Below are positions 18,601-59,553 of a stretch of DNA of 64,000 bases, piece after piece (position 1 is the first letter of the stretch; every line of letters starts with the position of its first letter). The stretch covers positions 1-64,000 of the forward strand of contig JAAILG010000846.1 in the NCBI GenBank assembly GCA_012026655.1, read 5' to 3'. The DNA is from Hydrolagus affinis. Taxonomy: Eukaryota. Both the position numbers and the translations under genes were made by a program. Below the pieces are notes generated by a model, which was given only the letters and a program-made list of their open reading frames with translations, made no database searches and was not told the DNA's origin.

Positions 18601-18639
18601 TTTTGTGATTTTTGAAAAATTTGTGCCAAGATTTATATG

Positions 18640-29991: not shown

Positions 29992-30362
29992 ATAATAATA
30001 ATAATACTCATTGCATTTGATATAGTGCTTTTCAAATCTTCTAGACGTCTCAAAGTGCTTCACAGAATATACTGTGAAGGGAATTGACCGGATATTTATG
30101 GGCAAAATGCAGCAGCCAATTGCTGCTCACAACCAATTGTGGATCAAGTGACCAACTTATTGACATTCTCCTGATGTAAAAGATGCTATACAAATGCAAT
30201 TTTGTTGTATTTTGTTAATACAACTGTGTTCCTACTTACTGCTAGATAAACAAGAGGAGTGTGGAATAAGGAAACTTGACCAGCATTTCACCCTGCTGAA
30301 ATGCTGAATCAAACCCAGGTCTCTCACTTGTGAGGCAAGTGCTCTAACCACTGAGCTACATG
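29992..30362 (-). mobile_element. tRNA-headed SINE interrupted by a short opposite-strand tail fragment
   Basis: Head (rc tgtagctcagtggttagagcacttgcctc) at ~30362-30222, tail at ~30160-29992, plus-strand aagatgctatacaaatgcaattttgttg between them. Confidence 0.75.
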
Positions 30363-33734: not shown

Positions 33735-33798
33735 TTGGTCACATATTGAGATGCCTCGAAGACATGATAAAGCGCTATATTAAATACAAGGATTATTA
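33735..33798 (+). mobile_element. SINE 3' tail fragment
   Basis: ttgagatgcctcgaagacatgataaagcgctatattaaatacaaggattatta. Confidence 0.7.
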
Positions 33799-35823: not shown

Positions 35824-35965
35824 ATTCACACTGAATGACATCCAGGTTGAACTGCTGAATGGCTCCCATGCTTATCTGCTTCACCTCTGCATCCAAGAGC
35901 ATTTGCATCAGGGACGTAGATAGATGCTTGCAGGCTGACATGCAGGCTGTCTGCGCTACCTTTCC
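35824..35965 (-). CDS. EXOC6: EXOC6 coding exon (142 bp)
   Basis: CTTTTTTCCAG / GTAAGT; GKVAQTACMSACKHLSTSLMQMLLDAEVKQISMGAIQQFNLDVIQCE. Confidence 0.96.
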
Positions 35966-36747
35966 CTGGAAAAAAGAGCAGCACTGTATTAAATCTGCTG
36001 GAGATCAGACAGCAGCGACACACGTTACATACAAATAATTGGTTTAAAATAATAAGTTAATTTAACCCTTTCAGGACTGAAATCAGCGTCCTTTCCCATC
36101 AGGAGGACGTCCTGGGAAAGGCACTATACAAATGTAATTGTGTTATTATTATTGTTGAATATTTGTCATCCAAACCAATGCTAATTGTTTTCAACAAATG
36201 CTATTAAGCAATGGTGTTCTGAACAAATGTCAATATTTGATGTATCAAAAGATTTGCTATGATGCAACTTGTCTTCAAAGGGTTTAAAAACTTAAAACAA
36301 GCACTGAAATGTGACTTTCTATTGATAGGATACATTTAGGAAAAGTACTGACCATTAAAATAATTTATTTTGATGTAAATGTGAAAATGCATGGATAAAA
36401 TGAAAATGTTGTGTGTAGAAATAAAATAATTTTCCATCAAATGTATTGTCTTTTTAAGGGCATAGTATCCCAACATTTGAGATACACTCAATCATACGCA
36501 GAATATATATTTTACCACTGCACAATATAATGGTAAAATTATAGTATAGACATACTAAACACATTTTAACTAGCTTGCTCCTATTCTGTACAATCTGCTC
36601 AATTCCAGCAGCTGTTGCTGGGATGTGCATTACGTACTGGATGCAAAAGTTTGTAAACTTTTTTTCACAAATACATATTTGTAGTTTTAAAATTAAATAT
36701 CTATTTTGTTTCATGGCCAAAATTTCATATTCAAATTTTCACTAGCA

Positions 36748-36851
36748 AATATACAGTCAATTCACTTTCCAGTATATTTTGTTAACCAATTTGAGATGTC
36801 TAAAAGACATGAAAAGCACTATATTAAATGCAAGGATTATCATTAGTATTA
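36748..36851 (+). mobile_element. SINE 3' tail fragment
   Basis: atatacagtcaattcactttccagtatatttt...gcactatattaaatgcaaggattat. Confidence 0.75.
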
Positions 36852-39519
36852 ACAATACTTTGAAAGCAACAATTGTGCAAATTATAACATCAAAAATAAA
36901 TTAAGGATATAATCATGCAATACATTGTCACAATACTATGTCCTCATTGGGTGATACTGAGATAAAACAAGATACAATCCAGATAAAGTAGGGCTGGAAG
37001 AATCCATTGGTCCCAAACCATGTAAGATGCAACTATCTCATTGAAATACACAGAAATTTATGCTTGACTGACATTCCATTAATCTAGTAACATTGACCAT
37101 TTATGCAACAGAAGATTAAGTATAGATAATGCCAGAATTGAGATACAGTACTAAGAAAAAATGATTCAAATTAGATTGAACCAGTCTCAGTTCCAATGAA
37201 TTAATTTGTACAACTTTTTGGGGGTAAAAAATGGCTGATGTACCACAACAAAATGCAATTTGAATGAAACTCCTGATATCCTAGAACATGCATCATTTCA
37301 CTTCAAAAACACTACTGTTCTCTATCCCCAGCAGTTGAAAATGAAGGTGACAAGTGCAGCTAAGATCTTTCAAAGCATCTTTGTTTCTATATTAACTACC
37401 TCGATGAGTACAAGACTAACCCATATTTTATGTTGCCAAACCATGTTGGTCAAACAAATACACTGAACAATCAGTCAAAGTTTAATATGTACAGCAACTA
37501 CATTAGAGGTTAGATTTTGTACCACTATTTCAGGCAAGCATTTCACGTGGGTGATCTTCACACACATTTTCTGTTGAAATTATGTCCAAAACTAATATAT
37601 ACAGAATTAGTAAAGCAAAATAACGACTTCAGGTAACTTCAAAACCCCAAATAGAGCAACCATGCAATGCATTTTGGCAACATTAGTTTCCCTCCATTTA
37701 TTTAAATGGTCAGCAGTCAAGAAGTTTCAGCAAAATGTTTTCGAAGACAGCAGCCACATATTCTTAAGTTTCTTAAACTTTAAAATATTTGGGTCTTAAA
37801 TTTTCAAACACAAAATTTGATTTAATGTACAACTGGAAAATTAACAAATTATAATCCTCTATATTAATTTTTTATATAGAAAAAATATCAATGCAGGCAA
37901 TCAGACTTAATTTTGAGTCTTGTTTTATCTTCCTCATTTATTCTGCATTTTTAAAAAAAAACATGTCTTAAAATTCTATTCTAGAAAACATATCTGTTTG
38001 ATAACACTCATAGAAACGGACGCACAGAAGGCAGCACCCAAGAAAATGGCAGAAATAATAGAAGCAATAAATCATTATCACACATTCCGGTTGATCAAAA
38101 CAACCAGGTTTGTTGCCCAGCCCTTAATAAAACATTCAAAATACTTTTTTTTAAATGAACAGTTCCCGACAGCCTTAAGTCAAGTCATTTACGTTGTTTC
38201 TAATCTGAAACAACTACTCAGACTTGGAAATTCCCAGGTTTAAACAATAGTTTGTTCTGAGCTTGTGGGTTACAATAATTGACCTCAGCATAAAAGAACA
38301 TTCCTGCTCATGAAAGCTAACTGGTGATCACATAAACATTAAACATTTAATTCAAATAATTAGGTTAACAAAAGTGCAATCAGGGCCAAAAAATTCATAT
38401 TGCTATCCTGGAAGAGTTATTTGTTTCCCAAACTTCAGTTCATAATAATATTACTGTTAGTAAAATGCCTAACAGTGTTGTAAACTAACACTGACTGTAG
38501 AATGTACATGGAAATGAAACCAATTGTACATTCAATATCCATTATATTTTAATACACTGAATTTGTACAGTAACTATGTTCAATATTTCAGATATTAATT
38601 CTGACAACTACTGGTATAGTAGAGGCTGGCAGATTTTCTTAAATCCAGTCATATTCTCAACAAGCAAATATCTAACTAGGAATTGCAGGCTCTTCCGAAA
38701 CATTCCTCTTATCTATGCATTTTTCCATGGCATCACTACTCTCTCTAAACACAGGTCTCAAAAGCCAACTGATAATTGCACTTCTCTAATTATTTAAGCT
38801 ATTCATGGTTAAAACAATGATAAACACTTTGCATTCTTGTCTATAATTATGAAACTGAAAAAGTGTATCCTGCAACATACACCCCTGACACCCCTACCAC
38901 CTATCTAAACCAAAGGTGCATTGGTGCATTTGTAAGATACAGCACTACTGTGTCACAAAACTAATAAACATATTAAACAATCATTATTGGTGTCAAAATA
39001 ATTCATATTCATTAATTATAATTGACACCATCATTCTCATGACAGATTTTAGATTTTTAATCAGCACACCAACGACAATTATTTCACAACTCCTGTGATT
39101 CTTTTCAATGTGTCTACAAACTTTGTGCTTATCTTATATTGTGCTGATCACACAGCGAATGTTCAGTCCAAAAACTGTAGCCTACTTTAAAAAAAACATT
39201 AAACATATAACCTAGTTTACAAACTGCACAATCATTTCACAGAAAACGTTGGAAGATACTTTGACATGTTTTGAGATAAAAAGGAGCTAAACCAAATGCA
39301 AGAATTATTATTAATTTATTATTTTTAATATCATAAGGATTAATTAAATTAGATGAAACCATGTTGAAAGCATGATTTCTATCACAAAGTCAAAACCTTA
39401 AGTTTAAGACAGCCAACATGAACTGTACTTTCTAGAAACATTTGTTCAGATTGTCATTTCATTTTATCTAAGTGTATAATGTGTTTCAGCCACAAAATAC
39501 GGTCAATTAATTTTAAAGT

Positions 39520-39598
39520 ATATCCTGTGAAGCGCTTCAAGACACCTTGAAGACGTGATAAGGCACTATTTTAAATACAAGGATTATTATTATCATTA
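39520..39598 (+). mobile_element. SINE 3' tail fragment
   Basis: ctgtgaagcgcttcaagacaccttgaagacgtgataaggcactattttaaatacaaggattattattat. Confidence 0.75.
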
Positions 39599-41179
39599 CA
39601 AAGAAAAAAAACTCATGTTTAATTCAATCCGGAGACCAGATGCATACTAATAATTTATATTTGGCATCTCACTTTTGAAAGTCAGAAAATATACACATGA
39701 CTATAAATTACTAGTAGTTGAAATTCTAATATTCACTTGGACAAATACATTGCACTTGTTTTGCTGTAGTATATAAAGAAACACAAGCTTCTAGCCAATG
39801 TTTCCTTCTTAGGTTTGAACCTTATTCATCAAACCAGCCCAAGTACGGTAATAATCCCTCAAACCAAACAATATGCTTGGATCGCACACACACACTTCCT
39901 TTCTGTGAAAGGGTGGTACAAAAACTCTAAATATTTTACGATAAATACGATAAATATTTTAACTTGTAACATTTTGACAATAATACCAAAATAATCCAGG
40001 AACCCAATGATATGCTTTAACTGAAGAATTACTAAACTGAAGCAGCAGTAGCAGAGAAATGACATTAAAAGATGAAAAAACAATGAACACAAGACAATGA
40101 GCGCAAGAATGCCTTGGAGATACTGAACACAATATTAATCAAATTGAAAGACATTCAGTTCTACTCCCTAAGCAATATCAATATGAATGGGAAAAGGAAC
40201 CTAAGAATCAATCGCCACAGTTCATTTAATTACAGAGTAATAGGTTTGAGATATTTAATGGAAATGTCATTTTAATTTAATGGAACACATACAGCATTTT
40301 AGTGGTGCAACATACTGCTCCATCAAATCAGCTCCATGTCCTATTTATTCTGCCTATATAATGTAATAACTGTATAAGCAGATTAATAGGCTGTCAACCA
40401 AAATTCTAACATTCAATTTATAAAATGCAAGCATATTCAAAATTATTATAATGAATACCAGATATGAGCAACATTTCAGTCTTCAAATATGAATAGGAAT
40501 TTCTTTATCCAGAAACTGTTCATGCTGCAGTATTTTAAGAGCTGCATTATTAAAGTGTTCTCATTCAACAGGATATACTGTTAACAGTCAAGAGAACAGC
40601 AAGGCACTGTACAAATGTAATTTGTTGTTACTGATTTTAAATTACTGTAATATCATCTTAAGAAGAAACCAAGTCCTTAGCAACTTTAAAAAAAATACAC
40701 CTGAAACACGTTGATAAATAATGAAACTACATTTCCTTTAAAAATCGGGGCCCTGACAATGTGAATGGGTACATTGGTCCATTTCCCCCACAGCTTGTTA
40801 TGAATGATTTGGCAGCAAAGTAAATTGGAGATTTAAGAAAGTGGAGCACAAGGAACCCAGTACAGGATGCTAACTTTTGTGTAACACTGATCAACACTAT
40901 CATAGCATGACGTATTGATTACTAAACTGAAAACCTGGTGCATGAATGTTTCTCAAGGTGAGAAACAAAAACAAAACAGAAAAATTGTGCACATCAACAA
41001 TAATCTCACTACACTGAACAAGTCATGATTCATAACACACCCACATATCACAACCAGAAAGGATCTGTGATGAGACTGCCTAATTAGGGAGGAAAATACT
41101 GTGAAGGGACTTGAAGACAAGTACAAAGTGTTAATATCAATATGTTGGGGTCCTGGTAACTAATGGAGTTCAACTAGGT

Positions 41180-41620
41180 TAAGAATGTGTGTGTGCTCCC
41201 AACATGGGAACAGAGCTTTGGATAACTTGGAGCTCAGTAGATAGGAGAGCATTGGAGATGATAAAACATGAAAGAGGATTTCAATAGCAGAGGAGTGAGT
41301 GAGGTAAGAGTTTAAATAGAAAATGTCAGAAGTTAGAAAAAGGTTGGTCTTAGCAATGGTTTTGATATGGAGAGTTTGAAATGTACCCAAGGGTCAAGCA
41401 GAAACACACGATTGTGGATTGACATATGGGCCAAAAGTACACTTGTCTAGCGCCTTCCACGTCAGGGGGATGTCCCAAACATTTCAGCATCTGAGCAAAC
41501 AGGCTGGGACGATGATGGGAGTCGAAACCAGACATGCAAAAGCGTTTGTAAGAACCAAACAGATAGCTTCAGTCTTACATTTCACTGTCAGAAGTTAAGA
41601 CTCATCTGCGTCTTGATTTT
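41180..41620 (-). mobile_element. Degenerate L2-type LINE ORF2 fragment
   Basis: agatagcttcagtctt (rc ~ KTEAI), gtcaagcagaaacac / gtacccaag motifs of L2 RT C-terminal region. Confidence 0.5.
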
Positions 41621-44184
41621 TTTTACAGCAATCAAAATCTGTCAGAACAACAGATCTGGAATTCAATAGTAAGGTTTTTTTATTTCCTTATTATTGTAAT
41701 GCAGATTATTCATTAAAATGTCAAGGTCATCAATCTATCTAAAGCAGTATCTTAAATGAGATTAATTTTCAGTCATGGTCGAACAATAGAAAGTGTTACA
41801 CCGTAGAACGGTATCTGGGTTATGTGGGCACAATGAGCTGTTTATTTCAATGTGGTCAGTTGCTAAGCAGAGGGCAAGTATCTTCCCAATAAAAAGTTCT
41901 GATGAAAATCAACAATCCTATTTGGTTCAAAATATAATTTTGCTTGCTTTATAAATGCTAGGAAGTTCCTTCCTCCTAATATTCTCTCACCTTCTCTCAC
42001 TGAAGAACATGAACAGGAAAAAACAGCCCTGAATTGCAGTCAAGCTGTGAAAGGAGTCCCTGAGTCACAAGGGACAGCAGTCTGTTGAGGGCCACAGGTG
42101 AAAGGGAGACAGGATGCAAATGATGCATAGGCCATATGGTGAATATCAGTATTTTAATATCTATTATAAAACAGCCAAACTAGCATCTGTTCATTTTAAA
42201 AAAAACTGTCTGCAAGAAGATTCTACTTAAAACTACACATTTCCAACAATATCAACTGCAATTACTAAATAATAAAATTTTCATTCAAATCCATTCATGT
42301 TTTTAAATCATGATAAGTTGACATTTCAATCGTTATAAACAGACAGTCGCCATCTACTTTTATTGTATTTGTAAAGCTGGGTGTCAGTCACAGGCAACGA
42401 AAAATTGGAATGATGCAATTGGTCAAATTGATTTAACCACAGCATGTCAACTCTGATCGATAACCATCCTAAGATTCAACATAACCAAGGGCAAGGAACT
42501 TTGTTGATTAAGACATAATTCAACTAGTTTTTAATACTTAAACAGATCTGAATTTCAATTTCTTCAAAGATCTCAAATTATGAACGAGATTGTAAACTTT
42601 GAAGTAATTACAATAGCGGTGCATGAAGCTTTAAAGACAGATACAAATAAGACCCAGTCGATTAGATATTTCTCAAATAATAAGCATTACAAATGACTGG
42701 TTATTTCAGATACAGTAAGCTGAATGAAATGTCCACCTCATCACTGAAGCATTTAACCAGTCTTTTCATCCAAGCATACACTGCTATTCCCTGCTTTTTT
42801 TAAATAAACATTTATCAAATCTTTTCTGAGGGATGCTTTAAATCACTGAGAATATAAATGACTGCTCTATACTAATATATACAATGATTGATACCTGGGA
42901 ATGGTTTATAAAGCATTAATCCAATCAAAGCTGATTCAGCTGAGGTCATACAAAGCTAGAGCAAAGCACACACATCTTATTATCATCATCTGAAGCCCCA
43001 AAAGATTAGATTTACTGCCCTTAAGTCACTCAAAGATAAAATACAATATGTATGGGAAAGTTTTAAGAGAAAGTTCCTTCAAAACAGTCAATCTACAGTC
43101 AGAACCTGTGTATCGAGAATGGTCAGGTAACTGCTAATAATTATATATTATGATTATTGGCAAACACATCTTGATCCCAGTAATACATCTTACTGAAAGA
43201 GGACTGAAGAATAATTAATACCTCAATTTTATGCCACAAAGGCATCATGCAAGCTATTACAAGCAAACAAGGTTGCTTTTATCTGAAAATACATACACAA
43301 AAGATCTGTTTGAATTTGTACTGAACAGATTTGTAATCTGCAGATAATCAAGAATTTCCATTAGCAAACATTGATTTCCCCATCAGTGAGGTGATGTACA
43401 TCATGTTTTCACCAAATATTTGTTTTGCTCAATCTGTGTCAGAAGCGACAAAAACAACAACAAAATTACATTTGTAACTACAGTTAATTTTGATTTGCAA
43501 TGATGCTCAAACTAAGGCGAATTGTAATTGTACTGAAAAAGTTTACTGGGAAATGACTTTAAGTCAACTCCTTTGAATGTCTATGGACACACCATGCAAT
43601 ATTAAGGTATAAAAGCTACAGAAGTACCATTATCTAGTTTAAATAGATATAAATATTCAGTGAAACAAATACTTGTCCCATCAACCTCACCTTGTAAATC
43701 CCCTTTTTCTATTACACGCTGCTTGCTTCATAATCATTCTCTGTATAGATCACTGACACCAGCCCTAGTGCCTCAGAAGTTTAATTTAAAAATCCCAAAT
43801 GGAAAACTAAATGTATGTATTCAATCATATTACAAAACTGAAGCAGGTTTTGAATGACCAATTTCATTACTTAAACTTTGTTATACAGTAATTTAAAAAA
43901 CAATCTTAAAAACAGAACAAAAGACCGCTTGATTCATCGAACTGATATTGATCTTGTATCAATGTTCTTGAAACTAAAAACTATAGAATATTTAGCATCC
44001 TTGTTTCTGCTTTCAGTCCTAGCTTGCTATTATACAGGCAATGTTCACCACAACACAGCCATAACCTGTGAAGTAATTCATCCTATTTAGATATTGTTAT
44101 AGCCTCCGATCCATCGTTCAGTCAGATATGTTCTACATATCTAATTCCCATAAAACAAAGGAACAACACAGGTTGAAGCCTATC

Positions 44185-44256
44185 TTGAAGTGCTTTGAGA
44201 CATATGGAATACATGATAAGGCTCTGTATCAAATGCAAACATTGTTATTATTATTG
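44185..44256 (+). mobile_element. SINE 3' tail fragment
   Basis: tgaagtgctttgagacatatggaatacatgataaggctctgtatcaaatgcaaacattgttattatt. Confidence 0.7.
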
Positions 44257-44845
44257 TTTGAACCTGTTAAACTTCATGTATTCTAGTTTGGGACTTTATA
44301 TTCTAAACACCTAAATAATATCCCTAATCTTCTATTCTCCAAAGAAACCAGTTCAGTTTGTCACCCCCACAACTCCAAAACTCCAAGAGTAAGTCTGGGA
44401 ATGACTGTTAACATTTTCTCAAGGTTCATATTTGACCTGAACAGTGATCCATGCAAATTGGAATAACTTTTTCCCAACTTAATTAATTAAAACTCTTGAT
44501 TGTAACCTTGCTTTGAACAACATAACAGGAGTTGGTCAAAATGAAAGGTAATCTCTGGTGTCTATTCTTGGATGCCTCCCAATCCTAGCATACATCAACT
44601 CAGTCTGGATTTTGCAAAGTAGTTAGTTACATTTGCAGTTGATAAACTTGTGTGGAAATAATTATGAACACAGCATTTTTTTTAAATCCTCAATAGGTTA
44701 TGAACAACATAATAATGTTTAATGAATACAAATGCAAGATAATGCATACAGGACACAAAGTTAAGCGACAAAAGTATGGGATACAACTTGCCAAAGACAA
44801 AGCAGAAAGAGCCAAAGATCTACTATACTAACATCTTATATAATG

Positions 44846-45020
44846 AATTGGTCATTTCAATCCACGACTGTTTGTGGGACACTGCTGTGCACAATTGGCT
44901 GATGTATTTCGCCCACATATGTACAGTCAATTCACTTTACAGCATATTCTGTGAAGTGCTTTGAGTCGTCTAAAAGAACGTGGAAAGCGCTATAGCAAAT
45001 GCAAGGATTATTATTATATT
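44846..45020 (+). mobile_element. SINE 3' half
   Basis: aattggtcatttcaatccacgactgtttgtgggacactgctgtgcacaattggctg...aagcgctatagcaaatgcaaggattattattat. Confidence 0.85.
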
Positions 45021-46542
45021 GTATATTCAATGGCTTCTTTTTTTTCCACAACTTGTTATGCTCATCTTCCCTTAATTAGTCATAACTCCATCAATTTTAA
45101 CTTTTCAAAAGAGAACAAACTGAACATCCTTGCCTTTCATCAACCAATTTGATATTTGAAATATGTTGGTTTTTGCATCTGTAATCACTGAAAGGCAAGC
45201 TGTTTCAGTCTGAAAAAGCATCTTTGTGATAAAACACAAATTAAATTGAAAGCATTTAACTCCTTAAATTCCTAGCATCTTTTGAAGAAGTGACAAAAAA
45301 GAATGACACAAATTCAAAAGTTTTTTTTTAAAGTTGCCACAAAGGTGCTTTCAGCTCCACGAAATTCCAAAGGCTTTGACGTACGAGACTTTTCTATGGC
45401 ATTTCCTCAGTGTTGGATACTTCGTCTGCACTGGCTGTCTAAAAAGTGGCTTTCATCATTCGTTTTCGTGCCAGTCAACATGATTTATGAGCTGCATTCA
45501 GTCACAGACACAGAATGAGAAATACGACTACAGTCTACTAATTTGTTTTGCATTGAGCCACTTAAGAGTCAAAGACCTGCTGTCAGACTGAGACCGGCAA
45601 CACAATTAACCAGCCAGTGACAGATTCATCCATCCTCCCCTACCAAGCTGTGCCAATCAAAGACAGCATGAGGCGACATTTGGTGGAATCAGTAACAAAG
45701 CCTATTCTCTGGCCAACCTATGTGAGTTTTTGAGTGACAGTTGTTGGAGCTAACTTGTGCTTAAGAGTCACCCTCTAGCCTCTAGTGTCTTGCTACCAAC
45801 TGTGCATTGAGAGTTTCCCTGTCACTCACACAAACAAAGAAGCTCCAATAATGTCCATCCCCCCAAGACAGAGCACCAGCTTGTCAAACACGACAAATAA
45901 ATCTTCAATTGCATTACTCTGCAATTAGAACACAAGACTCAGGTTAAATAGTCTTCAATTTAAAGTTTTCACCCAGCATTTTAGTTAAGATTAGACTGAT
46001 CGTAAAATGGCTGCATTTCAGTTCATTCGCTAAACAAGTTGAGATCAATGAACATGATATAATTATACTTAATATACACAAATGACAATTCCAGCTGTGA
46101 CAGAACAAATCTCAATTACATACATCAAGCTACGAATGTCTTCTTTTTTTTAAAAAAAGTCCATTTTAGGGACATTTTCACATTGGGTCTGTCAAATCAT
46201 CTGTGAAACACAATTACACTGTTTCTAAGTTACTTATGTTTACTTCAGTTATAAATAAACTGATTTGAAGACAAAAGCTGCAAAATATCTATTTGTATTA
46301 ACTTCAGTCCTGGAGCAATTGTTATGAGGGGGTGGGTGAATTGAAGATGGAAATGAGATTCTATAAAAAAATTATTCAATGTAAATAATATATTACACAC
46401 ACAAATAAACTATATGCCCTCTCATTGACACAGAAAAATATCATGAGTTTCAGTTGAGAATTGTATTATTTTTTGCACTACATAGGGTAGAGTCAATAGG
46501 AGAGCCAAGCTTCTTCTGTAAACATGGCCATAGAACATAAAA

Positions 46543-46770
46543 GACAACAAAAACAACAAAATTACATTTATATAGCACCATTCATGTCGGGGGAACATCC
46601 CAAGGTGCTGGACAGTCAATGTTTCAGATCCGAGCTGGGGTCGGGACTGGGGAGGGTGGAGAGAAAGGAGGGGATTTGGGGTGACCGATGGGCTGTTGAT
46701 GAGGAGGTTCTTGAGGCAGGACTTGAGGTGGGAAGGAAGCTAGGCTTTGGGACTGTGGTATGGAGTTTTT
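46543..46770 (-). mobile_element. L2-like LINE 3' end
   Basis: (CAA)n-like tail then attacatttatatagcaccattcatgtcgggggaacatcccaaggtgctggacagt...gttgatgaggaggttcttgaggcaggacttg. Confidence 0.65.
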
Positions 46771-47660
46771 AAAAAGACATAAAACTAAGGATAAAATAAA
46801 ACAAACTTGAAAACTTAAATAATGCTAGAAACACACAGCAAATCTATCAGCCTCTGCAAAGCAATTCAATGCTCAACTTGATGCACATTTTCAGTATTTT
46901 GTTTTGTGCTACAAAACTACCCATTTTCACATACCACAGTATTATTAGTTGGACACAAACTGCAGTATTGTTTAATAGCCATCAAAGAACTCAATTTTAC
47001 TCAAGTTTAAAAAGGCATTGATTCAGAGTCCCATTCCTAAAAGTTATCTTAGGTTAAGAATATTAGGGTTTCAAGGCAACTAATTTCCAAAGAATCTTTA
47101 AACTTACAAAATTAAGATTTAAAAATGTTCTTGGGTGGTCCAAGCTTTTTAATCTCAAGCATTTTGTCTATTCCAAAGACAAATAGGATGTGGTTTTCAC
47201 GTTGGTGCATGCTGGAACTGTTGTCTTGAATGAAGTATTCCAATTTTACATTCTTTTTTAGAACAAACAATTCTGTCTAATAAAGATATACATTGTTTTT
47301 AATAATGAAAATTGATGGTACTCATTTGTTCTTTGATGCAATATTACTAAAGAACAATATGCAGAAGCATCTTTTTAGATGATTATTCCAACTTAAATGG
47401 AGGGCTAATACTGTTGTACATAAGCAGTGATAATGAAAATAGATTATCATTGAATGACACTGTACAGCAAAGTTTTCCCTGCTCTTGTCTATCAAAGTCA
47501 TTTGCAGCTGTTCAATGACTAAGGGAAAAAAAAACAGGGATGGGGGCTGTTTTTAGAGCCGTTAATCTTTTAAATTTATTTTGAAGGCTACTTGACTTGA
47601 GCAATAAGCCTGCAGCCAGTTCTTAGCCTTCAGATGTGCATGCTTTCTTCTGCTACTCAC

Positions 47661-47690
47661 CGACATTGCTGCATGGTGATTGACGTTATT
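47661..47690 (-). CDS. EXOC6: Candidate 30-nt alternatively spliced EXOC6 microexon (NNVNHHAAMS)
   Basis: Long U-rich tract ending TTCCTTCTCAG, AATAACGTCAATCACCATGCAGCAATGTCG, donor GTGAGT; phase 0-0 like the host intron; no stop. Confidence 0.7.
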
Positions 47691-48504
47691 CTGAGAAGGA
47701 ACCCGGCAAGGAAATCAAAACAAAAAATCAAATGTAAACAGGTGTGGAAAGAAGTGTGAACACCAATAATTAAAAGGAAATAAAGTATTCTGTAAAAAGC
47801 AATGCATGCCATTATTTAAGTTCAGTTGCTAAATGGACATCTTCACAGTACATAGGTCACAGTGTGCAGTATAAATCCATTTTATTAACAACCAAACTTT
47901 GTGTACTACTCAATCCCAGTCTTCTTTAGGATTATGTGCACAATCTGGTCAGTTCTTTTAAAAAGTAAAAAGAAGCAAAACTGGTCAAAAGTAATGGTCT
48001 CCAACTTAGCCAAAGACTGAACTGCCAGAAGTCTGAGGAAATAAGTTTAAAGGATTATTGTTGCACAATAAAAATTGAATTCACACAAGGAATTAAACAT
48101 TTCTGTGATTAGGAAAGAACTTAAAAGGTCAGATCAAATACGTCTTATCCTAATATTTCATTTTTTTCTGTGGATTTTTAAACTTTGAATAAATGCCACC
48201 TTTGTAGTTATTCAAAATACTCTGACAGCAAAGTCAATTTGCTTGTTTAGCCTATTTTACCAAGAAATACCTTTCAAGCAAATCAGTCACAAAGGAATTG
48301 ACATTTAAAATGTTACTTAAACTAACAGCAGTTAAAATTATGATAGACCACATAAGGCTTTGAAGACGATTTAACAGGGTAGCAAAGATAAACGCATATG
48401 GTTTTGGGCTCGATGACCAAGATACTTATCTCAATTGAATGGAGCTTACAAATTACATTCACAGCACTATTCAAGATGACAAATTTTCATGTACAAATAC
48501 TCAC

Positions 48505-48684
48505 AGGTAAATGTGTAAAAACTTGAAAGGTACTTCTGAGAAAATTTATAAGATCCATTAAATAGCCACTGGCACGACCGTTGGGTTCAGTCATAGTCCA
48601 TTCATAGTCAGCTAGCTGTATGAATTCGTCAATCTTATGGTTAAGCTTCGTGTATATTTCTCCTTCTGCTGCATATCTAGCGTC
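48505..48684 (-). CDS. EXOC6: EXOC6 coding exon (180 bp)
   Basis: TTTTTGTGCAG / GTGAGT; DARYAAEGEIYTKLNHKIDEFIQLADYEWTMTEPNGRASGYLMDLINFLRSTFQVFTHLP. Confidence 0.97.
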
Positions 48685-49283
48685 CTGCACAAAAATCATT
48701 TCAATTAGTAAACACATTTCAAAAGAACAATTTCAAGAGAAGGATTATATTTGTTTCAGTTAATTTTAAATTGGATGAGCAGAACATAGGAACATATCAA
48801 AACTTATTGAAAAATTGGGTTTTCATAGCATCTTATGAAAGCTAGACTACATCTCATGAAAGTTAGACTACGTTTAGACTACGTGCACGTCAGTAATATC
48901 AAAAGCTTTGAGGAATAACATTTACTGTGCGTAAGAGGTACTAGAACAGTCACTTGAGTGTTCACAAAACCCTGGTAAACAAGGAAGTAAAAAATGTCAC
49001 CAGTCAATTCCAGATAATTTCAATCCTTCTGATATTTAAGTAGCTTTGCAGTTGTTTGGAACATAAATTAAATTATTCAACATTGCATGTATTTATAAAT
49101 GAAACAATCAATTCTGATCAAAGGAGGTCTTAAAAGCTTGGTGAGCACCAAAAATAGGAACTATTAAAACATTTTCAGAATGGAGAATTTTATTGCCAAG
49201 CTTGAAATCCATACACCTGAGACCCAATTACACACTTCAAAATCAAAACAGTAGTAAATAAGTGGCAGATTTCCAACACATAC

Positions 49284-49418
49284 CTTGAATGTGGACAGCC
49301 CATAAAGCCGTGTGGTGTGTACAGTCTCTGGAGAAACATTGGTGATGTTGGTTATAAAATCCTCAAGGTATTTACAGGCTTGCTCCAGGTGAGTTGTGTT
49401 TATTATGATCTGCACAAG
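49284..49418 (-). CDS. EXOC6: EXOC6 coding exon (135 bp)
   Basis: TTTGGCAG / GTATGT; LVQIIINTTHLEQACKYLEDFITNITNVSPETVHTTRLYGLSTFK. Confidence 0.97.
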
Positions 49419-51831
49419 CTGCCAAACACAAAGTGCATTGTTGAGACCCTGCTTACACTCTTCACCTTTTATTTTCTAGCTTACCGCCACCATAACTTAA
49501 TGTTGCTCATGCCAAGGAATATCTGTTGAACTACAGAACTCATTATATCATGCCTCCTAAGAAATCATACTGTTGTCACCATCAATAACTGTACTATCTG
49601 CACAGTTTTTGTGCAAAGACTAAATCCTGCAGGATACATGCAACAGTAAAAATTCATAACCAAAAACAGAAATCGCTGGGAACACTTATCTATGGAGAAA
49701 GGAAAATGAGTCAACGTTTCATAACTATTTAGCTTACAAAATAGAGTCACTACACTTCACAATAAATTCTATTCAGTGCTTTGGGATGTCCTCCGCCTGT
49801 GAAAGGTTCTTCCCCCACCCCCATGTTAAGAGTATTCAAATGCAAGGATTATACTGGTGCATTACCCTCAAATGAGAAGTACTTTATTACAATTTATTTT
49901 TCTAGAACTATATCCAAACATAATTGAAACATTACCTCAAAATCACAGAATTCATAAGATCTACATATATTCTTAAGGTTTAGAATGTCTTAAAAGACAT
50001 GTACAGCCTAGCACTAATAAAGTAAAGCATATATGGATCACTTTGCTTTGATGCAACCTGCAGCTGTTTAAAACTAATCAGAACATTAAACTTTAAGATG
50101 TATTTATAGCCCCGCGACATGGAAGCAAATCACTGCTTCATAGCAGCATCTCCACCCAAAAAATGCTTTGTCACGCTCCTGAGAAACATGTTGTTTTTAA
50201 AAAAATACAAAATCAATTAGATTGATCATATAAAGATGGTCAAGGCAATAACAGTTTTATCTGTTCACTTTATTCCTTCATTTTATGCAGCAAGCATTTC
50301 ACTATGCATGGAGAATGTAGCAATCCAATTTTCCAAATTGGGTATGAAATAATTTCATGTTTACAACCATACTTTATCCAGGCAGAAGGTACATCCAGAC
50401 GTCAGGTACTGCTTATAGCAATAACTTTTGAGCATTTATGCTGGTGTACATCCATTTGCTAATTTACGGAGAAGTTAGACAGATATTGAAATCGCACTAT
50501 GTCAAGTATGAGAGCTCATCTTTTATGCTGAATTGTAGTTTTGTTCAGATTGCTTATATTCAGTACCTGCCAGATTAGATCAGTTTTATATTTGTATTCA
50601 GCTCCTAGTGTAAAAGGTTCTTTAAAAACATTTTTATAGCATTATTTCTGAAATGTCACTTAAGTAGAAAGCATAATCTATATCATCTGGTAGCTTGCTG
50701 AAACATAATTGGTTTATGCTGGATGGTAAGGTTATGGGTTACATAATCAGACAAGCTGATTTTAAGTCAAATAAAATGTAAAAGCTTTTTTCATTTAAAC
50801 TATAAACTAATTATGCATTTTTCAGAAGGCATTTTATTTTCTGCCACTTTTACCAGATCAGTTTCAGATGGAAGCAAAATAAATTCATAATACAGATCTG
50901 GTATGTGGGGGATGGGGAGGAATAGAGAATGGACCAATTAGGTCAGACTAGCTTATCAACAGTGGGAAAGAAGTTTGAATGACTAGTCAAAGGAATTGAT
51001 ATGTTGGAGAGAGTAGGAAATCTATAATCATACTTTAATCATTACAGAATCCACTAAAAAAGTAATACTATTTTTCTTTTTAAAAAGGAATTGGACAGAG
51101 TAAAAGAATAGCATGCTAAATACCACGGCTTTGTAAAATTGGTTTAACTTCAAGAAATAGTTTTAAACTTCCTGAGAAATGAGTAATGAGATCCCTAAAA
51201 TTCTTGTTTTCTGCTTCGAATTCCACAATAAGCATAGTTCTAAATATATAAATAGAACAATTGCATTATTAGACATGTTAAACTCACTTTGTTGTGAAAC
51301 TGCCACCAACGTGATCAGATCACCACTAGCTTTGTTATTACATAACCTTCTAGTTAATGGCAACAGCCTTGTAAATATTTGCTCAAGCATTATCATACAT
51401 TTTGAAAGAAAACAAGTTGGCTTGTAGAAACACTGTAGGGGTGAGAATTTGTAGAAACACTTTAGGAGTGTATTCCAAAATTCTTAGCGAGTGCTGGAAC
51501 AGATCCATGACTAGATTAGCAGAAGTATGCATCGTAAACAATAGCAATAGTCAAGAAGTTGATATGAATGGAGTGAACCAAGAACTAACCTTTTAGCACA
51601 GATAGCTTGATTGTTTAACTAGATTTTGTATAACCTCTTGGTATTGCAACATGATATAGATTCAGCCATGGAGTATGGAACTGAATGAGGCCATTATAAA
51701 CCATTTTAGCACCTAACCTCCTATTGGAATGAGTAATGACTTTAGATCTTTGACATTTACAGATCACACTTCTGTCCATCAAGGTCAACACAGAGCTCCC
51801 CTGTAGATTATTTGTCTTCTCCGCCTATGCT

Positions 51832-51940
51832 AATAATAATCATAGTAATAATCCTTTGCATTTGATACAGCGCCTTATCACATCTTCAAGATGTCTCAAA
51901 GTGCTTCATAGGATACAATGTAAAGTGGAGTACTGTATAT
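51832..51940 (-). mobile_element. SINE 3' tail fragment
   Basis: ataatcctttgcatttgatacagcgccttatcacatcttcaagatgtctcaaagtgcttca. Confidence 0.75.
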
Positions 51941-52079
51941 TTTATAATGGTCTGGATAATTTGGGATTAAATTGTTCCCATTGCACAGCAATGTTTTTGC
52001 ACTTTTTCAGTTCAGCAATCAGTTGCAAGTCTTGCGGCAAACAGCATTGTATTAAATAAAATCCAATATTAAAATATAC

Positions 52080-52191
52080 CTCTGTCAAACCTATGTGTGG
52101 TTTCTTGATGAGATTCTGTAAGCACCCACTCAGAGTTCGAGTCAGCAGTAGGTTAGTAGATTTTCTGAGCATATCGTCTATTTCTGTTGAA
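52080..52191 (-). CDS. EXOC6: EXOC6 coding exon (112 bp)
   Basis: TTTGCAG / GTATAT; (S)STEIDDMLRKSTNLLLTRTLSGCLQNLIKKPHIGLTE. Confidence 0.96.
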
Positions 52192-53354
52192 CTGCAAATG
52201 AGAAATATTTAATAATTCCATAAATAGGGTGCACTCAAACCTCTTTGATACTTTCAGATCACCCCCTTCCTAATGCCATGCACAATAATAAAATTATGCA
52301 GACAAGAAAGCAAATGGGTCTTTTAAACAGTTCACTGATAAATGAGTGAAGGATTTTATTTTAAATGAAGAAAAGGAAATTATTTTTAGGGATTTTAAAA
52401 CAAATTCTAAAGTTACATCAGTAAAGATCATAACGTTGCAGTGGCAGATGCCATAAATAAATAAGTCACAATTAGTTTATAATATAATAATATAAATCCA
52501 TGCATTTGATATAGCGCTTTCCACATTTTTTTGTAAACCCAACGGAGTTGCCTGTATTGTACATAATTTTATGGTAGTTACATTAAAATACATTAGCCCC
52601 TTTTAGGACTACCTGCTTAATTAGTCCACATCTCTGAATGCTATTTATTCCACTGTTACTTTTACAATTAAAACAAAATTCACAAAGTGATATGGAAACT
52701 ACTTTGAATTGCTTGGCAAATAAATTAAATTAAAAATCGAATGTGTGAAGTTTTCATTTGTAGAGTTGAAATATTCATCAACCTATCTTCTCGTAGCTGG
52801 TTTACTCGTTTCATTCATTTCAGTAGCAAATAGCTAATTAAGGTAATGGAATAAAAGCGCACAAAAATTCCAAATAATTTAGCATGCAACCTAAACCTGA
52901 CTCTTCGAAGCATGGACCTTAAACAAGAAGATTACTATGATCTGCAAGAATTGTGGAACAGTTCCACCTCCTCAACCTAGTTAATTCGTTTTACACCCAG
53001 GTTGCACCTGTACAGAATTAAGTGCACTTTATAGATTATCCAAATTTGTTTAATCCACTGTACTGGGTAGAAAGAAGCCCATCTCCTGAGATTTAAATGT
53101 AGCAGCAGTCCCCAAATCATTTGAATCAAATTTATGTTAAAACCATGATTGAATCTCTGGTGAATTGGTTCCTCTCCACCACAGAAATAGGCATATTCTA
53201 AGTTAAATTAGATTTTTTTTAAAATCTGCACACAAAATGTTGAGTGCGATTAAACCAGATTGAACTCAGATCAATAAATCAAAAATTCATGCAATAAATA
53301 CATTAGTTATGTGGAACAGACAAACGGGGGTTGCAAAGTTGGATAAAGATTCTT

Positions 53355-53540
53355 TCAATTCTCCAGGGATTGGGAGAAATTTAACAAAGCATTATCTTCT
53401 TGGATGTTTATTTGTGGTTGATCCCTCCTTCAGGATACCAAAGGTGGAGCAAATCTTGAATAGGACAAGTGTATATGGTTTATTGAGGAAATGAGCTTGA
53501 TGGACTGAATGGTCTGTTTCTATTTCATAAATTATGTTCT
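53355..53540 (+). mobile_element. Degenerate CR1 3' tail
   Basis: gagcttgatggactgaatggtctgtttctatttcataaattatgttct is a typical CR1 3'UTR end. Confidence 0.55.
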
Positions 53541-54030
53541 CAGTTTAATTGAATCAAGTTAAAGAATACAACTACAGGAAATTAAACAAAGAAGACCTGA
53601 AATGAAACCTGTAGAAGTCTACAAACAAGCATTAGCAAACTCCAACATATTTTGTATGCCCTTTGCATTGTGAAAACATGCAAAATTTGTTATGTGGCAG
53701 GTTTAGAAATATAACTGTACAGCAGGAGTTAAAATAAATCAAGGCAATCAGCATCCATAACCATAATAATACTAATGTTGACAGTTCATATTAGGCACAA
53801 CTCCAGATTCTTAAAAGATGAAGGATTACACTTGTTAATACCCTTGGCTTTCCCCATCTGTTCCTACAGTTTTTACATAATCTACAAACCAAGTACTGTA
53901 CATAACAGCTGCAACAAACTTAAAATTGGCAAACAGATTTTAGCTTTCAATCTCCCAAATCACGTAGTATGAAATTTGCATCAGAGTGCATGGGTGGGTG
54001 GGGGGGAGGGGAGAAAAATTTAATCCTCAC

Positions 54031-54140
54031 CTTCGATGCAGTGACTCTGAAAATTTAAGGCTTGCATAAATGAATTCCTTGAACTCTTTGTAGATTTCTG
54101 GTACCGATTGAGACACTGGGAACCTCTTTGGGAAAGGTCT
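54031..54140 (-). CDS. EXOC6: EXOC6 coding exon (110 bp)
   Basis: TTTTGACAG / GTGAGG; RPFPKRFPVSQSVPEIYKEFKEFIYASLKFSESLHR(S). Confidence 0.95.
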
Positions 54141-54617
54141 CTGTCAAAAGAGCCAATATAATTGATTAGAATTCCTTTCCTTCACTTCTAATAATAATAT
54201 TATTATAAAGTATTTGCAGCAATTAACCCAGTATATTTTACAACAATAGGTATATTTCAAATAGCTTACATTTCCGGAGTTTGGCTCTTAGATTTGACTA
54301 TATATTAAACTCAGTGAATCAGATTCATAATACTGTACTGAGTTAGGCCAATATATTTGGAACAGATCTGAAGTTTTCTTATTAAACAGTCCAAGTACTG
54401 TATATAGATAGACAAGAGATCATGCATACAGGAAACAGTAAAGTCTCAATACAGTATCAAATCAGAGCATTCCTTGGATATGTAAACATACCTATGTAAG
54501 TCAGAATAAATGTTGCATAACTTAAAATATATTTCTTAGGCACCATCAGACTACTAGTTTATAAAACTAGCAAGATAAATGTAAAATAACCATTGCCATA
54601 AATTGAAACTTTGACAA

Positions 54618-54790
54618 TAACATAATAATAATCCTTGCATTTGATAGTGCTATTCATTCTTCTAGATGTCTCAAAATGCTTCACAGAATATACTGTAAAT
54701 TGACTGTATACATGTCGGCAAAAGCAGCAGCCAATTGCGCATAGCAGTGTCCCACAAACAGTCGTGGACTGAAATGACAAATTTATTATT
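54618..54790 (-). mobile_element. SINE 3' half
   Basis: ataatccttgcatttgatagtgc...cacagaatatactgtaaattgactg...cccacaaacagtcgtggactgaaatgac. Confidence 0.85.
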
Positions 54791-54905
54791 GCTTATTTTT
54801 GAGGGATTATTATTACGCATGTTAATTAATTAGTTAATTAGCTAGAAACAATCACTAAGTTGAAGAAAATAATGTAAATTTAATGACAGTAGGGTTAAAA
54901 CTGAC

Positions 54906-55011
54906 CTTTTCAAGCTCAGAGTCATGAAATGGGAATCGGCTGATTATCGCTCTGTATTCCTCTTCATTTGCTGCAGGAATTGGGCTGTAATTGTCGGACT
55001 CAAAAATTTCC
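54906..55011 (-). CDS. EXOC6: EXOC6 coding exon (106 bp)
   Basis: TTTTACTAG / GTCAGT; (R)EIFESDNYSPIPAANEEEYRAIISRFPFHDSELEK. Confidence 0.95.
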
Positions 55012-55464
55012 CTAGTAAAAAGTAAACAATTATTTTATGGAGAACATACACTGGTATTTTCACAAATTAAATTTACAATTAAACTGAACAGGTATAAGTG
55101 CAAATATAAAAAAGGTTTTCCTTCAACCTTTTACCTCATTAATAGCAAAACCCTTGCAGTGGAGACAAGGGAAAAGACCTACAATGTTGAATATCAACCG
55201 CAATGGTCACTAATACAATTTACTAGTAAAAATTAAATTCCACCCTTCAGTTAGGCAGTTAAGCAGTCAGGATCATAAGTTTAGTGTCCAACACCCTTCT
55301 CTTCCATCACCAATCAAATAAGTTTGCAAATCCACTCTATATATATATATATATTATATACACACATACGCACATTACCATACACTAAAATTAATCATCT
55401 GTAATGTAGGACAAAATAAAATGAGTAAGTCCATAGTTGATGACAAGTTACAAAGATCACCAAC

Positions 55465-55562
55465 CTAAAGACTGCAGCCCACTTCTTCAGTAAAGTTTCG
55501 TTGTACTGATCACGAATTTCAAGCAATAAATCAAATAATCTGTTCACAGGAAAACCATAGCC
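55465..55562 (-). CDS. EXOC6: EXOC6 coding exon (98 bp)
   Basis: TTTCTATAG / GTTGGT; GYGFPVNRLFDLLLEIRDQYNETLLKKWAAVF(R). Confidence 0.95.
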
Positions 55563-56005
55563 CTATAGAAATAAATCAAGAAGATATAGTAATGATTAGA
55601 AACAAACAAAAAAATTAGATTACGTAAAAATACATCAACTGACACTTTTCCTAAAATACCAACTACTGTACCTAGTTAATGTTTCAGAATTACATTGTCC
55701 TTCACAAGAATTAACTATGCTGAAAAAAACAGGTCTAATATGTGAATGCTGACATTAATTCATCTCAGTAATTACGATTTTAAAAAGCAACGATACACTT
55801 TAAAGGCTAGAGATGCCAGAAGCAATCGCTGAACAAAATGTTATGATCAAACTGCGTGGAAGGATTTTTTCCAACGTTTTGGAAGGAAGTAAGGAAGGAT
55901 GTTTTCCATATCTTTTCCAAATTTTCACATACACAGTATTAAACAGATGTTAGTTAAGGAAAAATTAAAAGATTAAGAATTTCTACAATCTTTCTGCAAG
56001 ATGTG

Positions 56006-56357
56006 GAGTCCTGTAGCTCAGTGGTTAGAGCACTCGCCTCTCAAGCTAGACCCAAGTTTGATTCCCGGCAGGATATGTTGGGCAAGTTTCCTTACTCCAC
56101 ATGTCTCTGTTGACCTAGCAGTAAGTGGGAACCGGCTTGTTAGTCGGATCGCCTTTCCGGGGGTAATAATTCCTTCAAAAAAATAATAAATTGGTCACTT
56201 CAATCCATGACTGTTTGTAGGACACTTATGTGCAATTGACTCCCACATTTCAACCACAAAATGTAGTCAATTCACTTTACAGTATATTCTGTGAAGTATT
56301 TAGAAATGTGTAGAAGACATGATAAGGGTGTATATCAACTGCAAGTATTATTATTAT
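56006..56357 (+). mobile_element. Apparently full-length tRNA-derived SINE (~350 bp)
   Basis: A-box tagctcagtggttagagc, B-box-like gtttgattccc, central gggcaagtttccttactcc (CORE-like), shared 3' module and (TTA)n tail. Confidence 0.85.
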
Positions 56358-56409
56358 CTTTGTACAAAGTCGCTATATTTTGCAGAAAATCTCATCCCCC
56401 AAATAATCA

Positions 56410-56492
56410 ATCAACTTTACAATATAGTCTGTGAAGCACTTTGAGTGTCAACTACATGTTAAGGTGCTATATCAAATGGATTTTTATTATTT
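56410..56492 (+). mobile_element. SINE 3' tail fragment
   Basis: ctttacaatatagtctgtgaagcactttgag...aaggtgctatatcaaatg. Confidence 0.7.
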
Positions 56493-56766
56493 TTAATAAG
56501 TTGTCCTCACCATGCGAAAGGTGCTACATCAAATATAAGGCTTATAATTAAAAAAGGGATTTATCCAATCTTGGAACATAGGAATTTTATTAACATTAAC
56601 TGAGAATTTACCAGTTAGACTGCAGATGATGTCCAATTTGCCCTGTCAAGAGTCAACCCTATCCATTTGATCCTTTGAAGCAGTGCATGCAGTTCAGAAT
56701 CTTAATATAAAAGGTTTGGATACAAATATATTTTTGGAAATGCTTTGTTGAGTAACTAACACCGAC

Positions 56767-56838
56767 CTGCAGAGTGTCAGCATAGACGACAATCAAGTTC
56801 TTCAACTCCAAGACGAGGTCAGGATCAGTGCAATATGA
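56767..56838 (-). CDS. EXOC6: EXOC6 coding exon (72 bp)
   Basis: TTGTTGGCAG / GTCGGT; SYCTDPDLVLELKNLIVVYADTLQ. Confidence 0.95.
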
Positions 56839-58371
56839 CTGCCAACAAAAGATAAAGACATTAACATTTTCTACAGAACACTAATCCTTTACATTCTCCC
56901 ACAGAAAATACATACAATAGAATAATGCATTTCTATATTATGCAAAGATTTATTTTCTGCAGGAATTGATGATAGAGTGATCAAGTCACCGCATTATTAA
57001 ATATATAATTACTTTAACCCTTAATAGTGCCCCAGACAAGTTGATGCATTAAAGCATGGTCTCATTTGGGCCACTGACAAGTTTTACTAATTTACACCGC
57101 CCACTTTCTTTGGATCAAAAAATCTCATTGTGCTGATGAAACAGCCATATCAATCTTTGCTGTTTTTCATTTGCTGGAAATGATAAAGGTTTATAAACAC
57201 GTTGTTCTCATCTTTCTAAATTATTTTTTCTCTGTTTCCCGTTAGTTTTAATGTGGGAAAGATGTGGTTCAAGAGTGTACCATTTCTTTCCCACAAAAAT
57301 ATCAGAATGTTTATTAATTAGAATACAAACGTTAAACATTGAAGAAAGAACTAGAGTGCCTTCTTACATTGAAATAACTCATGTCAAAATATTTTACAAT
57401 AATTTAAGTCAAGTTTAGGTAGTGTTTCTGTAGACATTGCTGACCTTAGTGAATTTCTGTACAAAGGGGAGGCATTGATGTGGGGTAAATACTAATAATT
57501 TCCGCCAAAAAGCTGACTCTATTGTATTTTTTTCCTAAACTCAACCCACTGCAACATTTAATGAAACTAATTTCAAATATAAAATGAAAGCAATTTGAAT
57601 TGATCAAATAACAGCTTTGATGACCATTACTTTTCTGACAGTTATTAGACAAAACCTAATAATTTATTTTGTAATTCACACACTGCAAAAGAACCCACTT
57701 AAATCTGCAGACTTAATTTCATATTCACAATAATTAAAATGCCACAGATTAATTATCAGCCACAGAACAATTCAACACTCTATGTATATAAACTGTCATC
57801 ATAAATTTGCTGCGTTTATTATTTTATTCAGTTTGTGGACTACATAATGCCCCTACTGTGTTCTAAATATCTTAATTTGGCACATAAGGGTAGCACCGCA
57901 AGTTTCACTGGTGGGGATTTATTTTGAAAACAAAGCATTTGGAATGATAATTAGGAACTATTTCCTGGTGGTGCTTTCAATACTGAACTATTCAATCTGA
58001 TCTAATGAAGAGGTCAGTTGAGACTAATGAGGACAGATTGCAACAATAACAGCAGATTAACTCTGCATATTCTAAACTCCTGGACTAAGAGCATGTTTGG
58101 AAGGCTCAGTCAATTGTAAATCACTAAAGGATTATGCAAATATCCCATAAATGTGGCTCAAAGCCTGATTCTGCTGAGAAAAACAAAAGCTTGGCAGGCC
58201 CTCTTCCAAATTTAAGTAACTTTTAATTACAAAAAAAGTCAAAGAAAGGAGATGTAATCATTCATCACTTTGAATGACTCTGACATATACCTATCAGCAA
58301 ACATGTTCTTTCCCTCCCCCTTCCACCACCACTGAAATATTTAAGTGTAATACTGCAAAACTTTGACTCAC

Positions 58372-58492
58372 CGAATGTGTTCTTAAGACTGCAATAATTT
58401 TTGAAAGTGCCATGTTCCAAAGCTCATCAGTGTAAGCTCTCGTCACTAATCCTTGAGTTGCATGTAATATGTGATCTTCCACGACAAGAAAT
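58372..58492 (-). CDS. EXOC6: EXOC6 coding exon (121 bp)
   Basis: TCTTTAG / GTGAGT; (G)FLVVEDHILHATQGLVTRAYTDELWNMALSKIIAVLRTHS. Confidence 0.96.
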
Positions 58493-58662
58493 CTAAAGAT
58501 CAGAGGAAAATCTTTAAGAATGTAACGTCCTTAAAATTAAACACATTTATGAAAAAATTCATAGGGACATGTATTCAATACTACTTCAAAAAAACATAAA
58601 TTCTAGTTCCTCAGTGAACAGAAAATATTCTATTTAGGTTTCAATAGGGCGCAATAACTTAC

Positions 58663-58709
58663 CCAACAATCTGGTTAAAATACTTTCTGTAGCCCTCAAC
58701 AGTTTCATG
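58663..58709 (-). CDS. EXOC6: EXOC6 coding exon (47 bp)
   Basis: TTTTTGACAG / GTAAGT; HETVEGYRKYFNQIV(G). Confidence 0.95.
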
Positions 58710-59139
58710 CTGTCAAAAAGAAAATGAATGAGAACAAAGTAGATAAGCATACAATATCAAACACAGAGTGTCCCCCATTTATAAATATTCAGATTCTACA
58801 TTGCAAACTTTGTGTAAAAATGGCCAAATTCCTTGTCACGGGTCATTGCTGACATCACTTCCACCAGTCAATGCCAGAAACCTGATCAAATCCAGTAAAG
58901 TATAACAACAATTTGCACCTATATAGCACCCTCCTTGCATCTGAGAGTACTTAGCGGGGAGGGGCGTGGGGAGAGCCTGACTGCTCAGATAGTAGATAGT
59001 ATTAGACCCACACCAAGTTTAAGCAAGCCCACACACAACTTGGGCACAGTCTAATAGGGTTGTACTGCAGTGCAGTTTTCAGTCACCATCACCATGATAC
59101 TGTGATGATGTAGTGGTTATAGTGTTATTACAAACTGGT

Positions 59140-59385
59140 CATGTTCTGGTTAAAATCTTGGTTCAATTTGTTTGCCAGTTTCAGCCAGGGCTGCATGAGT
59201 TAGTTAAGTGGATATTGGCTAAAAAAAAAAGCCAAGTTTGTGCTCCTGGTCTCCCTTCTGATAATGTGCATGTGGCATCTGTTTGAAAAAGGTCAGGCTC
59301 AACAGTGATAGCAGCCATGCATCACTTAAGACAGGGTACCAGAAGGCAAGCACAGCTCGGGAAACTATACTCCAGCATGAGGAGG
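59140..59385 (+). mobile_element. Highly degenerate Deu-domain SINE
   Basis: tttcagccagggctgc...gccaagtttgtgctcctggtc...aggtcaggctcaacagtgat...gaaactatactccagca mirrors the 28.8-kb copy in reverse. Confidence 0.45.
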
Positions 59386-59469
59386 CTAGGAACCGGGAGC
59401 AGGGAGCTATATACCAATGGGGGGAAAAATAAATGAATAATTAAGCACAATAATTAAAAATTAAATTAC

Positions 59470-59553
59470 CATGTTTGACTGCGGTTGCAATACCAGTCTC
59501 GCTTGCTTCCTTCGTTGCTTTCTATAATAGTTTTCAAAAGAGTCTCGATCACC
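59470..59553 (-). CDS. EXOC6: EXOC6 coding exon (84 bp); most 5' exon found in the window
   Basis: TTTTGTAG / GTAATT; GDRDSFENYYRKQRRKQARLVLQPQSNM. Earlier exons were not found in 59.6-64 kb, so presumably lie beyond the right edge. Confidence 0.95.

Follow-up and report, generated by a model that had tools for sequence, protein, structure and literature searches.

Is the 30-nt exon found within EXOC6 of Hydrolagus affinis a neural microexon controlled by SRRM3/4, or is its inclusion governed in some other way? The window analysed here, a stretch of 64,000 nt from contig JAAILG010000846.1 (assembly GCA_012026655.1), contains this exon, to which a preliminary description had attributed neural-microexon hallmarks and a tissue-specific effect on exocyst–Rab interaction. 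It is apparently an unstudied splice switch, retained across jawed vertebrates within the domain with which an exocyst subunit binds Rab. If the exon is switched between tissues and alters Rab11 or exocyst contacts, it would provide a simple handle on tissue specialisation of the exocyst. The exon, its two splice forms and the conservation of its peptide are, in our assessment, practically certain; its regulator and its principal tissue are discussed below with graded confidence.

EXOC6 in the window and the borders of the exon

EXOC6 lies on the minus strand of the window, which covers the 3′ two-thirds of the gene. The coding exons run from 59553 to 10087 (10087..59553) and by tblastn encode residues about 296–813 of the elephant-shark isoform P0026; exons for the residues before ~296 gave no match within the window. 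The encoded residues are identical to those of elephant-shark P0022 at 509 of 539 positions, with corresponding values of 490/547 for skate, 489/541 for shark, 468/539 for sturgeon and 483/574 for coelacanth. The N- and C-terminal Sec15 Pfam domains, PF20651 and PF04091, both score above cut-off on P0026, and these domains, the identity to P0022 and a fold match to the Drosophila Sec15 structure 2A2F all place the gene in the EXOC6/Sec15 family. Elsewhere in the window, two open frames on the minus strand (1–303 and 1564–1812) read like first exons of a CYP26-family P450, which we take to be the usual neighbour of EXOC6; neither frame has a Pfam match at E 0.001.

The 30-nt exon (47661..47690, minus strand), encoding NNVNHHAAMS, lies between two constitutive exons on the same strand: an upstream exon (DARY...FTHLP, 48505..48684), which ends in phase 0 and is covered by raw RNA reads, and a downstream exon (GKVAQ...IQCE, 35824..35965), which skipping reads join to 48505. 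The joints at 48505, 47690–47661 and 35965 are all in phase 0, and the 30-nt exon keeps the reading frame. Its sequence and its position between exons ending in FTHLP and starting with GKVAQ are exactly as first described. Residues 651–660 of P0026 align by tblastn to 47690–47661 with 10/10 identity, the same peptide occurs in P0028 and P0029, and the stretch 47600–47800 has a single match in the genome.

The 3′ splice region (47691..47735, minus strand) comprises a U-rich tract, a UGC at 47708–47706, a pyrimidine run and the AG at 47692–47691, and it is free of AG for 97 nt upstream of that AG. The 5′ splice site, GTGAGT, occupies 47655..47660 (minus strand). Two RBFOX-type GCATG motifs flank the exon on the minus strand, one downstream at +18 (47639..47643) and one 119 nt upstream (47805..47809). 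Thus the UGC about 18 nt before the acceptor and the GCATG about 18 nt after the donor, both reported at the outset, are present, starting at 47708 and 47643. With a length of 30 nt and a preserved frame, the exon falls under the MicroExonator definition of a microexon (≤30 nt), and within the 28–51 nt class, outside the 3–27 nt microexon class, of the zebrafish atlas (PMC12626424). In a loose scan, 17 short stretches of the gene span had AG and GT borders plus a pyrimidine tract, so the AG...GT pattern alone proves little.

Splice forms and conservation

RNA was compared using four of 19 listed runs (11 of the 19 guessed to be RNA), aligned to 47560–48760; the runs carry no tissue labels. In run X1, which consists of contigs guessed to be RNA, a 60-nt contig at depth 39.4 joins 48505 to 47690. 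Run X17 consists of raw polyA single-cell reads, about 27% of which were read; of its 46 aligned reads, 30 are at least 99% alike to the window. One X17 read crosses the 48505–47690 joint, and five loose read ends at 48504 match the downstream exon at 35949, indicating skipping. Inclusion in X17 is therefore 1/6 reads, with a 95% interval of 0.4–64%. Runs X4 and X7 gave no match on 47560–48760, which may be false negatives. The exon thus has AG/GT borders and occurs in both included and skipped transcripts, as expected of an alternative cassette exon, with the downstream inclusion junction 47661–35965 drawn from protein models only, as the aligned stretch ended at 47560.

The two informative samples appear to differ strongly. 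The X1 intron contig is unbroken from 48534, even though the skipped form would share its first 31-mer (the intron continuing with GT and the downstream exon with GG), so skip words are either absent from X1 or were removed there, and inclusion in X1 would be near full. X17, from a different organism, mostly skips; the counts are small.

The flanking intron is also unusually similar between the window and X1. Downstream of the exon, the segment 47560–47660, which includes GCATG, has 0 substitutions in 101 nt, against 40 listed in the 555 nt of the deeper intron at 47803–48357 (P about 5e-4 at a uniform rate, with 18 more differences beyond those listed); the flank comparison covers X1 only.

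Protein models extend this picture across jawed vertebrates. Of 384 fetched proteins, 183 carry the insert and 171 do not; a further 22 show some other difference at the site, and in 8 the anchor motif is missing. These counts are not frequencies, since one source search used the insert as query. For most of the sampled species, annotation contains the included as well as the skipped form. Elephant shark (P0026) and sawshark have exactly the peptide of the window, and variants occur in rays, bichir, gar, sturgeon and teleosts; in coelacanth, caecilian, axolotl, lizards, snakes, turtles and birds; and in platypus, echidna, marsupials, whales, dog, cattle, hamster, mangabey and gorilla/bonobo. 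Over 15 insert variants, A7 and M9 are invariant, and N2, A8 and S10 each change once. Cartilaginous fish have V3 and H5, whereas most others have N, S or T and D at these positions, and the Chinese hamster insert has 12 residues. In mammals the N-terminal half of the insert drifts (P0221/P0222, P0219, P0245), position 1 being T or K in both placentals and monotremes, and the D-H/Y-A-A-M-S/T half is kept. The insert is absent from human P0287 and zebrafish P0372, and no insert protein from human or Danio rerio was found among the members listed, which numbered 15 for each large cluster; cyprinids other than Danio rerio carry it. All seven full-length proteins assembled by Logan skip the exon.

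The exon also behaves as a unit, being joined to other neighbours in P0001, P0019 and P0385. As a separate observation, P0013, P0019, P0042 and P0044 (great white shark and caecilian models) start the 35965–35824 exon 20 codons in, which would reflect either an alternative acceptor or a modelling artefact and would delete most of the predicted helix 658–683. A degenerate pattern of exon plus donor returned one match among metagenome contigs, on a GC-rich, bacterial-looking contig, and was rejected as chance.

The search through fish and tetrapod EXOC6 isoforms for an insert of about 10 residues after FTHLP, which had been put forward as a check, thus recovered orthologous inserts across groups. 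Likewise, the proposed examination of reads at 48505–47690 revealed inclusion, in the X1 contig and in the one X17 read. A lack of inclusion reads together with a lack of any orthologous exon had been named as grounds for abandoning the exon; the RNA joint and the orthologous inserts contradict both. RNA joint, tblastn and protein models agree that EXOC6 has here an alternative exon that preserves the frame and is shared by fish and tetrapods. Because orthologous inserts appear in models from sharks to apes, sequence comparison indicates an ancient jawed-vertebrate exon that is already in public gene models. In RefSeq and UniRef, the EXOC6 insert isoforms match the exon of the window in position, length and frame, and the peptide of Callorhinchus milii isoform X2 (P0026) is identical; other examples are coelacanth XP_005991613.1, chicken XP_025007365.1 and gorilla and bonobo XP_055208476.1 and XP_034787004.1. 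These are predicted isoforms with no described tissue pattern or function. None of the papers retrieved for EXOC6 together with splicing or structure deals, judged by title and opening of the abstract, with the 30-nt exon, and VastDB may hold the event. The exon is therefore already annotated, apparently without a functional study.

Control of inclusion

The last intron of the same gene supplies a standard for comparison. There, a 12-nt microexon (11344..11355, minus strand) would add VNRG, the same peptide as in zebrafish P0372, and from its length and peptide it is probably the orthologue of the published neural and retinal EXOC6 microexon. In zebrafish that microexon (DreEX0031112) has a neural PSI of 92.7 and falls by 32 in the srrm3 mutant, and in human (HsaEX0023471) it is enriched in retina, according to PMC12626424 and PMC9303857. 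Its acceptor in the window is A-rich, with 9/18 pyrimidines and two UGCs, a layout of weak acceptor and displaced tract.

The assignment of neural-microexon hallmarks to the 30-nt exon was not supported: its UGC is at chance level, its pyrimidine tract adjoins the AG and a name search did not find the exon in the zebrafish neural and srrm3 lists. A classical SRRM3/4-dependent microexon, included in neurons and perhaps endocrine cells, is nonetheless an alternative, given a conserved, frame-keeping exon in a vesicle-trafficking gene, the UGC at −18 and the AG-free zone described above. According to PMC12626424 and PMC9303857, loss of srrm3/4 affects 82 of 136 zebrafish neural exons of 28–51 nt, and neural microexons show an enrichment of Rbfox motifs on their downstream side; near-full inclusion in X1 would also fit a brain sample, although X1 carries no tissue label. 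However, of 7069 22-nt windows across the gene span, 2040 contain TGC (29%), and four of nine constitutive acceptors of the gene have a UGC, so the UGC is weak evidence. SRRM3/4 targets have a pyrimidine tract displaced from the AG (bioRxiv 10.1101/2024.09.17.613571), and the 30-nt exon, with 14/18 pyrimidines at −20 to −3 against 9/18 for the 12-nt exon (a crude count, not a splice-site score), has neither a displaced tract nor a weak 3′ splice site. In a name search of the zebrafish table of 708 neural exons (PMC12626424), the only exoc6 row among the matching rows was the 12-nt exon; the table includes 139 exons of 28–51 nt and leaves muscle and heart out of its comparison. The same was true of the matching rows in the srrm3-mutant and retina tables (PMC9303857, 18 supplementary files), and absence from such lists may reflect read coverage. 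No exoc6 entry appeared in the searched supplementary files of PMC12626420 (12 of 13) or PMC12868881 (1), nor in the eight of PMC7821500, whose tables may use other identifiers. Coelacanth models that include the 30-nt exon also argue against a neural switch, and overall we consider this explanation unlikely.

We instead favour control by RBFOX, with inclusion likely highest in muscle-type tissue. RBFOX enhances inclusion when bound in the downstream intron, and UGCAUG is its optimum. The proximal downstream intron contains GCATG at +18, in the form AGCAUG rather than the optimum. This is the one motif clearly above chance, as GCATG is found in only 176 of 7068 30-nt windows of the gene span (2.5%); it lies in the flank that is free of substitutions against X1, and it points to RBFOX control. 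A downstream position is described as inclusion-enhancing in PMC9303857. RBFOX at this site would then be the likely driver of inclusion.

Several points temper this proposal. RBFOX tends to repress from upstream motifs, and the second GCATG lies upstream of the exon. RBFOX is active in neurons too, and an exon under its control could be expected among the zebrafish neural exons, a list from which the 30-nt exon is absent. The tissue is suggested partly by coelacanth, in which three of eight proteins (NCBI and UniRef entries) carry the 30-nt insert and none of the eight has the 12-nt neural insert. Besides muscle, liver and testis, other coelacanth tissues have also been sequenced. The coelacanth RNA documented in 2013 came from those three tissues (PMC3750513), and the part of PMC3787270 that was available names no coelacanth RNA tissue. 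Insert models alongside RNA from muscle, liver and testis suggest inclusion outside the nervous system, bearing in mind that the RNA sets used for annotation may differ and that protein homology can seed models. The label "muscle" is a best guess, based on these models and on runs that have no tissue labels.

A milder view is that both forms coexist and there is no sharp switch, the exon being included partially in numerous tissues or else in one that is neither muscle nor nerve. This would explain its absence from the neural and retina lists and suits its pyrimidine-rich acceptor, its ordinary GTGAGT donor and the presence of both forms in X17 and in the annotation of most species. It fits poorly with X1, whose spliced words seem to represent the inclusion form alone, with the uniform skipping in the Logan-assembled proteins, and with the VastDB paper (PMC5630039), where 23 of 27 supplementary files were searched and contained no exoc6 row. 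We regard it as somewhat unlikely. The 17 splice-like candidates in the gene span might suggest that the exon is mere splicing noise or resembles one by chance, without having been selected for any role, but the RNA junction and the conservation of the peptide, in both length and sequence, in every jawed-vertebrate group sampled make this extremely improbable, and the orthologous inserts already refute it. Thus, a conserved alternative exon with RBFOX-driven, muscle-type inclusion is the best overall explanation, held tentatively and at a little under an even chance, ahead of inclusion that is broad or in another tissue and of an SRRM3/4 neural exon.

The insert in Sec15 and comparison with known systems

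With the insert, a predicted surface turn in the C-terminal domain of Sec15 would become ten residues longer. The location of the insert inside this domain, which had been assumed at the outset, is borne out by Pfam PF04091 on P0026 and by the fold model. A first fold from 52 close vertebrate sequences had a mean pLDDT of 46.1 and was unusable; the model used here, of P0026 from 105 diverse sequences, has a mean of 86.4. In that model helices 630–646 and 658–683 flank the turn, and residues 651–660 have a pLDDT of 55 between blocks of 88 and 90. The insert is thus predicted to open the turn into a loop of low confidence and to extend the second helix by its conserved A-M-S tail. The length of this turn is otherwise nearly fixed across eukaryotes: of 150 distant Sec15 homologues, 105 span the site, and 91 of these 105 either match the skip length (63) or exceed it by a single residue (28), with none carrying a 10-residue insert there.

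By sequence (E 4e-87) and by fold (E 1.2e-15), the best match is the Drosophila Sec15 C-terminal domain (PDB 2A2F), whose chain, unlike P0026, has no insert at the turn. Rab11 reportedly contacts fly Sec15 through N659 and M663, residues said to come from work by Wu in 2005. Their counterparts in P0026 are N700 and I704, on helix 693–711 and off the insert turn; judging from the topology, this helix would end at the pole where the turn lies. The protein acts as a Rab11 effector (PMC5612732 and PMC9808001), the loop might alter binding of Rab11 or another partner, and literature searches for Rab11-contact mutants returned nothing.

A broader proposal, which we consider quite improbable as a whole, is that EXOC6 has two ancient, independently wired mini-exons, the 12-nt one neural and retinal and the 30-nt one making a muscle-type exocyst. 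The 30-nt exon would retune Rab-dependent vesicle capture in jawed vertebrates by opening a turn whose length is otherwise fixed and which shares its pole of the bundle with the end of the helix that binds Rab11.

The same genome has an EXOC6B-like paralogue on another contig. In the intron after its paralogous exon, part of which reads N, the readable sequence contains nothing that matches the 30-nt exon; a short stretch ending in GTAAGT near the intron start may be the tail of a small exon whose acceptor side is unreadable. The EXOC6B-like last intron (L005, G000:C6397) contains a candidate 12-nt exon between AG and GTAAGT, in the same phase and preceded by a UGC, which would add ISRA at the corresponding position. 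If this candidate is real, the 12-nt microexon predates the EXOC6/EXOC6B duplication.

Compared with the SRRM3/4 neural microexon programme, the 30-nt exon is likewise short, in frame, conserved and placed as a surface-loop insert in a trafficking protein, but it is longer than the 3–27 nt class, differs in acceptor layout and is absent from the lists searched. A UGC and a short length do not by themselves make a neural microexon, and the published neural microexon of EXOC6 is a different exon. The 12-nt exon known in zebrafish and human shares with the 30-nt exon its gene, its frame-keeping length and its conservation, but it lies in the last intron and has the double-UGC weak acceptor that the 30-nt exon lacks.
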